Shown here piece by piece: positions 30,200 through 46,358 of a stretch of 64,000 nucleotides of DNA. The notes beneath the pieces are model-generated. The model did not search any database and was not told the origin of the DNA. It saw only the letters and a list, made by a program, of their open reading frames with translations. Position numbers and translations under genes: made by a program. Positions within the stretch are counted from its first letter, which is position 1, and each line of letters starts with the position of its first letter. The DNA lies in NCBI RefSeq assembly GCF_963921235.1, contig NC_086107.1, positions 107,820,001 through 107,884,000 of the forward strand. Direction: 5' to 3'. Origin of the DNA: Mobula hypostoma (Eukaryota).

Positions 30200-31670
30200 A
30201 CTACCCATCCAACACATTATCCTCCACAACTTCTGCCATCTCCAGAGGGATACTACCACCAGATATACCTTCACCACCCAATCCAACACACCATCTTCCG
30301 CAACTTGCGCCATCGCCAAAGGAATCCTACTATCAAACATATCTTCACCACCCCATCTCTTCCACTCTCTCTGCTTTCTGCACAGATTGCTCCCTAGGTG
30401 GCCCCTTTCTCCATTCGTCCCTCCCCACTAATCTCCCTCCCGACACTTAACCCCGCAAGTGGCCAAAGCGCCACGCCTGCCCACCCACCTCCTCCCTCAC
30501 CTCCATTCAGGGCCTCAAACAGTCCTTCCAGTTGAGGCAACACTTCCCCTGTGAATCTGCTGGGGTCGTCTATAGTGTCCGGTGCTCCCGATGAGGCCTC
30601 CTTTACACCGGTGCGACCCACCGTAAATTGGGGTCCACTTCGCCGAGCACCTCCGCTCCATCTGCCAAAAGCAGAACTTCTGTTGATGCAATGCCTCCTC
30701 TTGTGCCAAGATAAGGCCACTCTCAGGGTGGAGGAACAACTCCTTATATTCCATCTGGCCTGATGGCATGAATATCGATTTCTTCTTCCAGTAAAACAAA
30801 ATCCCTCCCCTTTCCTTTCTATTACCAACTTTGGCCTCTTACCTCTTCTCAGTCAGTGGTGGCCAGTGCGATCATGTTTGCTGTTGTGTGCTGGGGCAGC
30901 AGGCTGAGGGTAGCAGACACCAACAGGATCAACAAACTCATTCGTAAGGCCAGTGATGTTGTGGGGATGGAACTAGACTCTCTGACGGTGGTGTCTGAAA
31001 AGAGGATGCTGTCCAAGTTGCACGCCATCTTGGACAATGTCTCCCATCCACTACATAATGTACTGTGTGGGCACAGGAGTACATTCAGCCAGAGACTCAT
31101 TCCACCGAGATGCAGCACAGCATCATAGGAAGTCATTCCTGCCTGTGGCCATCAAACTTTACAACTCCTCCCTTGGAGGGTCAGACACCCTGAGCCAATA
31201 GGCTGGTCCTGGACTTATTTCCTGACATAACTTACATATTATTATTTAATTATTTATGGTTTTATATTGCTATATTTATACTCTATTCTTGGTTGGTGCA
31301 ACTGTAACGAAACCCAATTTCCCTCAGGATCCATAAAGTATGGCTATGACTATGACTATCACCACCCCTGGGTCCCCCCTCCCTTTCTCCTATGATCCAT
31401 TCTCCTCTCCTATTAGGTTCCTTCCTCTACAGCCCTTTATCTTTCTTACCCACCTGGCTTTGCTCATCACTTTCTACCTATCCTCCTTTCCCTCCCTCAC
31501 CTTTTTATTCTGCCATCTTCCCCCTTCCTTTCCAGTCCTGAAGAAGGCTATCAGTCCAAAACATTGACTGTTTATTAATTTCCATAAATTCTGCTTGACC
31601 TGCTGAGCTCCTCCAGCTTCTTGTATGTCTGTCTTTGGATTTCCAGCATCTGCAGACTGTCTTGATATTT
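30200..31670 (+). mobile_element. Penelope-like element 3' part (linker + GIY-YIG endonuclease + terminal repeat), split by a Rex1 insertion
   Basis: HIILHNFCHLQRD, VYSVRCSR*GLLYTG, TLRVEEQLLIFHL remnants. Decayed hammerhead at ~31533-31570. Confidence 0.75.
30850..31358 (+). mobile_element. Rex1 LINE 3' fragment
   Basis: VASAIMFAVVCWG...RINKLIRKAS...ILDNVSHPLH and a (tatgac)n tail. The same 3' end occurs at ~45925-46130(-). Confidence 0.85.
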
Positions 31671-44689: not shown

Positions 44690-45330
44690 CATCAATCCTT
44701 AATGAGGGGTCAGCAGTGGAAAGGGTGAACAGCTTCCCTGGCTGTCAGCAGCTCAGGGGACAGCATATTGCTGCAAACCCAAAGAAGGCACATCAGCGGC
44801 TCAACTTCATTCGGAGTTTGAGGGGATTTGGTATGTCACCAAAGACTTGCAAATTTCTACAGGTTGTACGGCAGAGAGTATTCTGACTGGCTGCATCGCA
44901 ACCTGGTCACGGAACCTCCAATGCCCAGGATCACAGGAGTCTGCAGAAGGTTGTAAACTCAACTAGCTCCATCACGGGTACAACCATCCCTGCTGCCAAG
45001 GACATCTTCAAAAGGCAGTGCCTGAAGAAGATGGCATCCATTATTAAAGACCCTCACCATCCGGGACATGCCCTCTTCACGTTACTATCATGCAGGAGAA
45101 GGCACAGAAGCCTGAAGATCCACACTCAATTATTTATGACCAACTTCTCCCTCTCCGCTATTAGATTTCAGAACGCTCTATGAACTTATGAACACTATCT
45201 CATTATTTGTCTTTTGCACTATGTATTTATTTACTAACATAGTAATTTTTACATCTTCCCCTCTATTGCTATTGCAAAACAACAAATTTCATGACATATA
45301 GTAGTGATAACAAACGTGCTTCTGATTCCC
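44690..45330 (+). mobile_element. Rex1/Babar-type LINE 3' fragment
   Basis: gagagtattctgactggctgcatc and aaagaccctcaccatccgggacatgccctcttc motifs. Confidence 0.8.
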
Positions 45331-45353
45331 CTCAAAGCCATATTGGAACCTAT

Positions 45354-45903
45354 GTTGTTCGTCCATCGTTGACGTCGATGAGGACCTCGACACCATAATG
45401 ATGGTGTCGAGACTAGCGCGTGATTTGGATTTGAGGGAGAGTGGCGCAGCATCAGCCTCACTCTCTCTTCCCAATTCCCATCTGGATCCAGTGGCAAGAC
45501 AAGAGTTGAGACGGCTGGAGATGGGACTAGGCGCAGTGGATGACCAGGACATCTTCTATGTCTTGTCCTGTTCTACATGTTCCACGACGCTTGCAGAGAC
45601 CGTGTTCTTGACCATTGGACCTTCCATCGGTCTCATCCGCTCAATCCACCGGAGTCTGTCTTCACATGCTGGGATAGACAACTCCCTATCTCACCGAGGG
45701 TTTGAGACCCGTCGGCTACCCTCACCTGGTTTAGCCGGCTTGTCGAAGCCATTGCCCGGGGTGTGGCCGCTGTCGCATGCAAACAGCTACGGGGAGCCAC
45801 AGGTGAGATCTGAGTTCCAGGTGGGGACCAAAGGTGGACAAACCACCCTGAAAAGGACGAGACATGTTCCCCCACCAGAGGTGCTACCCCTCCCTGACAC
45901 CCC
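45354..45903 (-). mobile_element. Full-length non-autonomous retroelement (probably RTE-mobilised) with a 5' ribozyme fold
   Basis: 14-bp TSD ATATTGGAACCTAT at 45340-45353 and 45906-45919. 3' end ...gaacaac with terminal hairpins; CpG-rich, so probably young; no recognisable protein domain. Confidence 0.8.
45721..45903 (-). ncRNA. HDV-like self-cleaving ribozyme (predicted)
   Basis: P1 GGGGUGU/ACACCCC; P2 CUCACCUGU/ACCAGGUGAG; P3 GGC/GCC; L3 UCCCCG...; P1.1 CC/GG; GGGCAA junction; P4 UGGCUU/AAGCCG; J4/2 G-C-UAA. Confidence 0.8.
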
Positions 45904-46358
45904 ATATATTGGAACCTATATAGTCATATTCATACTTTGTTGATCCAGGGGGAAACTGGTTTTCGTTACAGTGCACCATAAATAATAAACAGTAATAAAA
46001 CCATAAATAGTTAAATACTAATATGTAAATTATGCCAGGAAATAAGTCCAGGACCAGCCTATTGGCTCAGGGTGTCTGACCCTCCAAGGGAGGAGTTGTA
46101 AAGTTTGATGGCCACAGGCAGGAATGACTTATCAGTCATAACCAAGAGACAAAGGTGTAGAATTAGGTAACTCAGCCCATCAAGTCTGCATCACCATTCC
46201 ATCATGGCTGATATAGTTTCCTTCTCAACTCCGTTCACTTACCTTTTCCCTGTAAGCTTTGATTGCCTTGTTAATCGAGAATCTATCAACCTCCATGCTA
46301 AGTAGTAGACATTAAACTCCAGTGCCAACCTTTAGCAAAACATCAATAATTGAGCACA

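Follow-up and report, generated by a model that had tools for sequence, protein, structure and literature searches.

An HDV-like ribozyme fold at the 5′ end of an abundant non-coding retroelement family in Mobula hypostoma

A 64,000-nucleotide (nt) stretch of the Mobula hypostoma genome (NCBI RefSeq assembly GCF_963921235.1, contig NC_086107.1, positions 107,820,001 to 107,884,000 of the forward strand; here called the window) harbors on its minus strand, at 45354-45905, a copy of a non-coding retroelement whose sense 5′ end can be drawn as a ribozyme of the hepatitis delta virus (HDV) type. An earlier sequence-only reading had reported an HDV-like fold at the sense 5′ end of a non-coding retroelement that is flanked by target-site duplications (TSDs). 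Our analysis confirms this observation and partly supports the interpretation built on it. The family to which the copy belongs, family A, probably carries a genuine HDV-like ribozyme as its head, with the cut lying 9 nt upstream of the site proposed by that reading, at the 5′ end of the family. The window copy itself is a dead, truncated relic of this abundant element, decayed and 7 nt short at its 5′ end.

All pairings listed in the sequence-only reading are present on the minus strand, as judged from recomputed pair lists, and every strand of the helix order P1-P2-P3-(L3)-P3′-P1′-P1.1-P4-P2′, a nested double pseudoknot, is complementary in the window copy (Table 1). The HDV and CPEB3 ribozymes share a core that consists of a 3-bp P3, an L3 of the form U-Y-C-N-N-G, a GG after P1′ and a C-N-A-A before P2′. 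The element follows the same core sequence logic, including GGGCAA in family A. L3 supplies the U and the G as well as two C opposite the GG after P1′ (P1.1), reading UCCCCG in family A and UCCAAG in a sister family, family B, and the C, U, A and A of the putative catalytic C-N-A-A directly before P2′ show no change in any of the 30 family-A copies compared. Two dimensions of the fold were not mentioned in the earlier reading: L3 measures 28 nt and contains a 5-bp hairpin (GCUGU/ACAGC) inserted after UCCCCGU, and J1/2 spans 89 nt in the register of that reading, or 98 nt in the outer register described below.

The rate at which such a fold arises by chance was estimated with a generic HDV-type descriptor, written after the candidate had been seen, that comprises a 7-bp P1 starting with G, a J1/2 of up to 120 nt, a 7-bp P2, a 3-bp P3, UCCNNG, an L3 of up to 37 nt, GG after P1′, a P4 of at least 4 bp and CNAA before P2′. 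The descriptor has exactly one match on the two strands of the 64-kb window, at 45903, and two matches in 80.6 Mb of first-order Markov sequence, which corresponds to about 0.003 expected per window. In 580 kb of family loci there are 36 matches, all inside family copies and 0 elsewhere. Our data show that the HDV-like fold is improbable by chance. Since the same rate amounts to chance matches on the order of a hundred in a 3.5-Gb genome, the fold alone is no proof and its context must carry the argument.

The sequence-only reading had equated the predicted cut, 45904|45903, with the boundary of the element. In the window copy this site does lie near the 5′ TSD, from which two extra nt, AT (45905-45904), separate G45903, but the 5′ end of the family is found 9 nt upstream of this G (hereafter G1). 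The first 24 nt of the element occur exactly 1693 times genome-wide, and G1 is preceded by AT in 1554 of these copies (92%) and by exact GGTRTAT in 1091 (64%), counts which, with ~5% decay per site, imply that the leader is present in nearly all copies. Of the 27 copies whose TSD is 8 nt or longer, 23 carry a (G)GGGT(G/A)TAT leader and 4 a shorter remnant, which in the window copy is AT; 0 start at G1 without extra bases, so the clustering of 5′ ends at G1 that the earlier placement of the cut would predict is absent from the TSD-defined copies. Thus, our data place the 5′ end of the family at the first G of GGGGT(G/A)TAT and show that cut and boundary seemed to match in the window copy because 7 nt of its leader have been lost. 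The leader has a run of exactly 4 G in 1018 copies, of 3 G in 159 and of at least 5 G in 68, and the 5′ junctions scatter, with 2-5 G plus occasional extra bases. The first 100 listed copies comprise 82 with GGTGTAT and 18 with GGTATAT. The heptamer is thus present two times at the start of the family RNA, GGGGUGUAU-GGGGUGUCAGGG.... Of the first 100 listed copies, 76 have T, 18 have A and 6 have C immediately 5′ of GGGGTRTAT, and in some copies this base stands outside the TSD; it could reflect an untemplated A added to the end of the complementary DNA, microhomology or a target preference. Four same-strand copies with the rare five-G leader lie within 140 kb of one another (C55:74,766,427-74,905,040 of the same genome), which suggests a local segmental or tandem duplication and not four separate insertions.

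We computed a revised fold on L002, a majority-type copy with a G leader. The outer, leader heptamer is perfectly complementary to ACACCCC in the dominant variant, while the inner heptamer takes part in a 10-bp stem with CCUGGCACUC (positions 83-92), by which J1/2 as a whole is closed into a hairpin, with linkers of 2-3 nt and 4 nt. The J1/2 domain alone folds at -45.8 kcal/mol, compared to -34.2 kcal/mol when positions 1-7 are withheld, and in this model the inner heptamer would be sequestered in the J1/2 stem. The cut predicted for the outer register lies at the family 5′ end and coincides with the 5′ ends of the copies, which is not the case in the register of the sequence-only reading. The basal stem of the window copy joins 45902-45893 with 45821-45812, where an A at 45816 (C in the majority) leaves one mismatch; this copy is without the outer heptamer and could at best use the inner one, as drawn in the sequence-only reading.

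In the model that we propose, the first ~190 nt of the family RNA would fold as an HDV-like self-cleaving ribozyme. P1 would form between the 5′-terminal heptamer GGGGU(G/A)U of the 9-nt leader and ACACCCC. It would be followed by the structured J1/2, whose basal stem would be built with the second, inner GGGGUGU, and then by P2, P3, L3 with its UCCNNG core and extra hairpin, P1′, the GG of P1.1, a variable P4, GCUAA with the putative catalytic C, and P2′. A cut on the 5′ side of the first G would release the element with its exact 5′ end from a read-through or host transcript, and by such self-cleavage every full-length copy would bring its own processing signal and would need no RNA polymerase III (Pol III) promoter. 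Catalysis, the choice of heptamer and read-through transcription are what we infer here from sequence. A real HDV-like ribozyme might instead work in the register of the sequence-only reading, with the inner GGGGUGU as P1 and the cut at 45904|45903, 9 nt into the family RNA. No variant, not even that with the A-variant leader, GGTATAT, has a mismatch between the inner heptamer and P1′, and the inner heptamer is the sole P1 strand remaining in the window copy. Copies made from RNA cut there would, however, start at G1, as none of the 27 TSD-defined copies does, and the 139 of 1693 copies without AT before G1 are about what 5% decay at two sites would produce. Use of the inner heptamer would also cost about 11.6 kcal/mol of J1/2 stem, and the basal stem is kept in family B with a two-sided change (seen by eye, the computed column count being confounded by an alignment gap). 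We judge cleavage in the inner register to be distinctly unlikely.

Table 1 Features of the window copy and of its HDV-like fold, listed 5′ to 3′ along the minus strand.
Feature	Position	Strand	Basis
5′ TSD ATAGGTTCCAATAT	45906..45919	-	14/14 identical to 45340-45353
AT, end of the 9-nt family leader GGGGT(G/A)TAT; other 7 nt missing	45904..45905	-	Copy comparison
P1 5′ strand of the sequence-only reading, inner GGGGUGU heptamer	45897..45903	-	Fully complementary to ACACCCC 45764-45758
Inner GGGGUGU in the family model, predicted to lie in the J1/2 basal stem	45897..45903	-	Fold
J1/2 peripheral domain, 89 nt, long hairpin	45808..45896	-	Folding; compensatory pairs between A and B
P2 5′ strand CUCACCUGU	45799..45807	-	Pairing with ACCAGGUGAG
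P3 5′ strand GGC	45796..45798	-	Pairs with GCC 45767-45765
L3 core UCCCCGU	45789..45795	-	U and G at the HDV U20/G25 positions; CC as P1.1 partners
L3 insert: A, hairpin GCUGU-UUGCAUGCG-ACAGC, G	45768..45788	-	Conserved in families A and B
P3 3′ strand GCC	45765..45767	-	Pairs with GGC 45798-45796
P1 3′ strand (P1′) ACACCCC	45758..45764	-	Same in the A and B majorities
GGGCAA after P1′	45752..45757	-	First two G as P1.1 partners of the L3 CC
P4 hairpin UGGCUU-CGAC-AAGCCG	45736..45751	-	Majority C at 45751 gives a C-G closing pair
J4/2 GCUAA, putative catalytic C at 45734	45731..45735	-	Suggested by sequence
P2 3′ strand ACCAGGUGAG	45721..45730	-	7 contiguous pairs, bulged C, then 2 pairs
Non-coding element body, no Pfam domain	45370..45720	-	Pfam search
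3′ terminal motif ACGATGGACGAACAAC; extended as (AAC)n in other copies	45354..45369	-	Copy comparison
3′ TSD ATAGGTTCCAATAT	45340..45353	-	Matches 5′ TSD

Conservation of the fold could be followed in family B, which we traced via contigs of other organisms and which gave 1749 motif matches compared to 0 for the control. Family B is about 530 nt long and older, with copies 70-80% alike, is homologous to family A along its length and keeps the end ...ACGATGGACAACCAC. The majority sequences of the two families differ at 3 of 53 core positions and at 27 of 139 peripheral positions (Fisher p = 0.024), the three core differences being L3 positions 4-5 (CC to AA) and one CpG-decayed G. P1, P1′, P2, P3, the U, CC and G of L3, the GG of P1.1 and GCUAA are invariant in A and B, with 0 of 5 positions of J4/2 differing between the majorities. 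The J1.1/4 region reads GGGCAA in family A and GGUACA in family B; the GG after ACACCCC is found in both and has decayed at CpG to AG in some B copies. When 10 A copies are aligned with all 30 B rows under the outer-P1 model, 83.8% of the cells are paired, compared to 34-46% with slid partners. In P4 one pair is CG in 10, GC in 10 and UA in 4 rows and the next is GC in 17, AU in 6 and GU in 6, and three pairs of J1/2 are switched on both sides (AU 27 and GC 10; GC 27 and AU 10; UA 30 and CG 9). The P4 closing pair also changes from C-G to U-A within a single contig of another organism, by two CpG transitions. The sequence-only reading had looked to genomic copies for covariation in P1 to P4, and what they provide is conserved pairing with compensatory changes in P4, as in J1/2, and no covariation in P1, P2 and P3. 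In the family B loci L061, L063, L066, L069, L080 and L087, J1/2 lacks 20-37 nt in its middle or 3′ part while P2-P2′ is kept; the length of J1/2 differs among family B sublineages.

The element has the structure of a non-autonomous retroelement. Family A is a non-coding family without long terminal repeats (non-LTR), of ~560 nt, that shows TSDs, 5′ truncations and a tail of (AAC)n; the 3′ end reads ...ACGATGGACGAAC(AAC)n, without poly(A), and the terminal pattern is ...ACGATGGAC(G)AAC(AAC)n. A 581-nt query gave 4515 first-look candidates in the 3.48-Gb genome from which the window comes, and all 40 scored candidates are 94-100% identical and span the query from position 11/18 to 567/580. A second sample, drawn by the last 80 nt and sharing a few loci with the first, comprises 18 of 29 full-length and 11 of 29 5′-truncated copies, one with an inversion. 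The copies are dispersed and have TSDs of 8-14 nt. At L043 (C40:80.58 Mb of the same genome) query positions 186-281 stand inverted beside 271-568, an arrangement that resembles twin priming. A Pfam search found no domain in the three long open reading frames, with a match to DUF746 that stayed below threshold (E = 0.011). The TSDs, the 5′ truncations, one inversion and the microsatellite tail point to mobilisation by a reverse transcriptase of the long interspersed nuclear element (LINE) type, and TSDs, truncations and tail, together with the lack of a Pfam domain and of a tRNA or Rfam small-RNA head, mark the family as a probable non-coding, LINE-mobilised, non-autonomous element.

Short length, lack of coding capacity, high copy number and a LINE-type tail would equally suit an ordinary short interspersed nuclear element (SINE) transcribed by Pol III from a tRNA-, 7SL- or 5S-derived head, and a loose B-box-like string, GGCTTCGA, is present in P4. 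However, ARAGORN detected 0 tRNA genes and Rfam, to E = 10, no tRNA, 7SL or 5S head, in keeping with the sequence-only reading, which had the element do without a Pol III promoter, and the B-box-like string sits about 150 nt from the 5′ end and is reduced to TTCGAC in family B. An ordinary Pol III SINE is so improbable an explanation as to be hardly credible.

A number of results weigh against a ribozyme. The comparison with Rfam that the sequence-only reading had proposed gave no match to an HDV-like family, neither over the whole window at gathering score nor over 45300-46000 at E up to 10, where just three unrelated chance-level matches of any family appeared; the two long inserts, J1/2 and L3, may be the cause. 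The canonical L3 of HDV-like ribozymes is short, about 7-8 nt, compared to 28 nt here, and we know of no described HDV-like ribozyme with a hairpin in L3, going by passages of two papers rather than by a survey. Further departures from HDV and CPEB3 are the 98-nt J1/2 of the outer register and a G1 that pairs with C and not, as in HDV, in a G·U wobble. The folding energy is ordinary (z = 0.46, with 137 of 200 shuffles folding as well or better), and the unconstrained minimum free energy (MFE) structure, at -79.2 kcal/mol, is a different, non-HDV fold. P1, P2, P3 and P1.1 show no covariation in the A+B alignment, being invariant in the masters, and RNAalifold on this mixed, noisy alignment recovered 5 pairs only, all in J1/2. 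With invariant masters the absence of core covariation speaks neither way, yet it leaves the double pseudoknot without covariation support. The A-variant leader, present in 18 of the first 100 listed copies and in the nearest relatives of the window copy, places an A·C mismatch at pair 6 of the outer P1. The late writing of the descriptor counts on the same side, as does the fact that a precise transcription start would explain the sharp 5′ end equally well. Finally, flank comparison and two genome pattern searches found no autonomous LINE with the same head or tail. The flanks upstream of the short 3′ fragments L041, L052, L036 and L042 are unrelated and so mark plain truncations; the 16-nt tail with a different upstream sequence gave 10 matches, all of them family A with a 2-nt deletion; and of the 24 matches to the 3′ edge of the ribozyme with a different downstream sequence, most are mutated copies of A or B.

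Much of this would be expected if the conserved 5′ ~190 nt were no ribozyme but a promoter with a precise G-run start, a protein-binding site or an element of translation or stability, its likeness to HDV being coincidental. Such a reading accounts for the missing Rfam match and the abnormal L3, for core helices that do not covary and a fold that RNAalifold and the MFE miss, for the sharp 5′ end through the start of transcription, and for compensatory support that is confined to the simple hairpins P4 and J1/2. Coincidence would, however, have to produce the complete, ordered set of HDV core features at about 0.003 per window, and to place exactly between P3′ and GG 7 nt that are complementary to the exact 5′-terminal heptamer of the family. 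The positions that vary between A and B (J1/2, P4, two L3 positions and J1.1/4) are, moreover, those that vary among known HDV-like ribozymes. We hold the non-ribozyme reading to be rather unlikely and favor an HDV-like ribozyme that cuts at the family 5′ end.

The ribozymes of R2 elements, as described in PMC3774820, offer parallels. P1 and P1′ lie 23 to more than 700 nt apart in R2, and a quarter of R2 ribozymes have mismatches at the top of P1, a tolerance that bears on the A·C mismatch of the A-variant leader. When the R2 cut is at the element end, the 5′ junctions are variable, and the junction scatter of the present family fits this behavior. R2, R4/Dong and the R2-derived short internally deleted elements (SIDEs) share with our family an HDV-type double pseudoknot that heads a non-LTR element at its 5′ end, in sense orientation, and, for R2, a J1/2 of tens to hundreds of nt, a variable P4 and a cut that sets the RNA 5′ end from a co-transcript. 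According to PMC3414825, R2 SIDEs are internally deleted non-coding derivatives that retain the ribozyme and the 3′ end. R2 and its SIDEs differ from family A in inserting into 28S ribosomal DNA, whereas family A is dispersed with TSDs of 8-14 nt, and family A is further set apart by the hairpin in L3, the duplicated P1 heptamer and the lack of a detected partner LINE. In trypanosomatids L1Tc and its non-autonomous partner NARTc share a 5′ HDV-like ribozyme (L1TcRz, Pr77) that releases the element RNA; it is compact (77 nt), also acts as a promoter and belongs to protists, in contrast to the about 190 nt of the present candidate in a 3.5-Gb, vertebrate-sized genome. For large HDV-like ribozymes, PMC4908430 reports that a J1/2 helix, P1.2, which pinches P1 and P2, makes cleavage faster, by as much as about three orders of magnitude. 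In our model the 10-bp stem would have the same topology as this helix of the drz-Agam-2 type, closing J1/2 next to P1 and P2, but, judging by sequence, its 5′ strand is a copy of the P1 strand, which would provide two alternative P1 registers.

Ribozyme-headed non-autonomous elements are already known from R2 SIDEs and NARTc, so the concept is not new, and what is gained here is breadth and a structural variant, no new mechanism. New, as far as checked, are a dispersed family with >3000 motif-bearing copies in two lineages within a vertebrate-sized genome, the L3 insert and the duplicated P1 heptamer; three strings of 17-20 nt from the element had no match in the literature text searched, a search that Dfam and Repbase lay outside. 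Related copies occur also in contigs from several other organisms. To our knowledge the HDV-like ribozymes known in vertebrates are few: CPEB3, R2 and that of lamprey. If active, the candidate would add to them a high-copy dispersed family, would show that L3 can accommodate a whole hairpin, which would account for such ribozymes being overlooked by covariance models and the usual descriptors, and would offer thousands of natural variants for structure-function studies as well as a clean case of non-autonomous retroelements that rely on self-cleavage from host transcripts without a promoter of their own. The more specific picture, that of a SINE-like element of thousands of copies in which an HDV-like variant with L3 hairpin and duplicated P1 heptamer has replaced the Pol III promoter and can switch between two cleavage registers, is one that we put forward tentatively and with considerable doubt.

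Some further observations concern reading frames and surroundings. The leader AT and G45903 together form ATG, and a sense frame of 89-109 amino acids runs from there through the ribozyme region in most copies (window 45905-45633, minus strand); HDV-like ribozymes have been connected with translation initiation in non-LTR elements. On the antisense strand, at 45326-45943 (plus), no stop interrupts one frame over the full length of the element (205 amino acids from stop to stop in the window copy, 183-184 amino acids in 19 of 30 copies), and the frame has no Pfam match. Since 50 of 5000 dinucleotide shuffles yield as much, base composition is the probable cause. One arm of a 136-nt inverted repeat, 97% complementary (45995-46130 and 31130-31265), is found immediately upstream of the element. 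The element sits within dense interspersed repeats, with at least 60 more direct-repeat families and 143 pairs of inverted repeats in the window. In the 3′ flank of another copy, L019:2056-2140, word depth in one sequencing run reached 33,000-115,000, far above that of the element; this segment is a much more abundant repeat or transcript.

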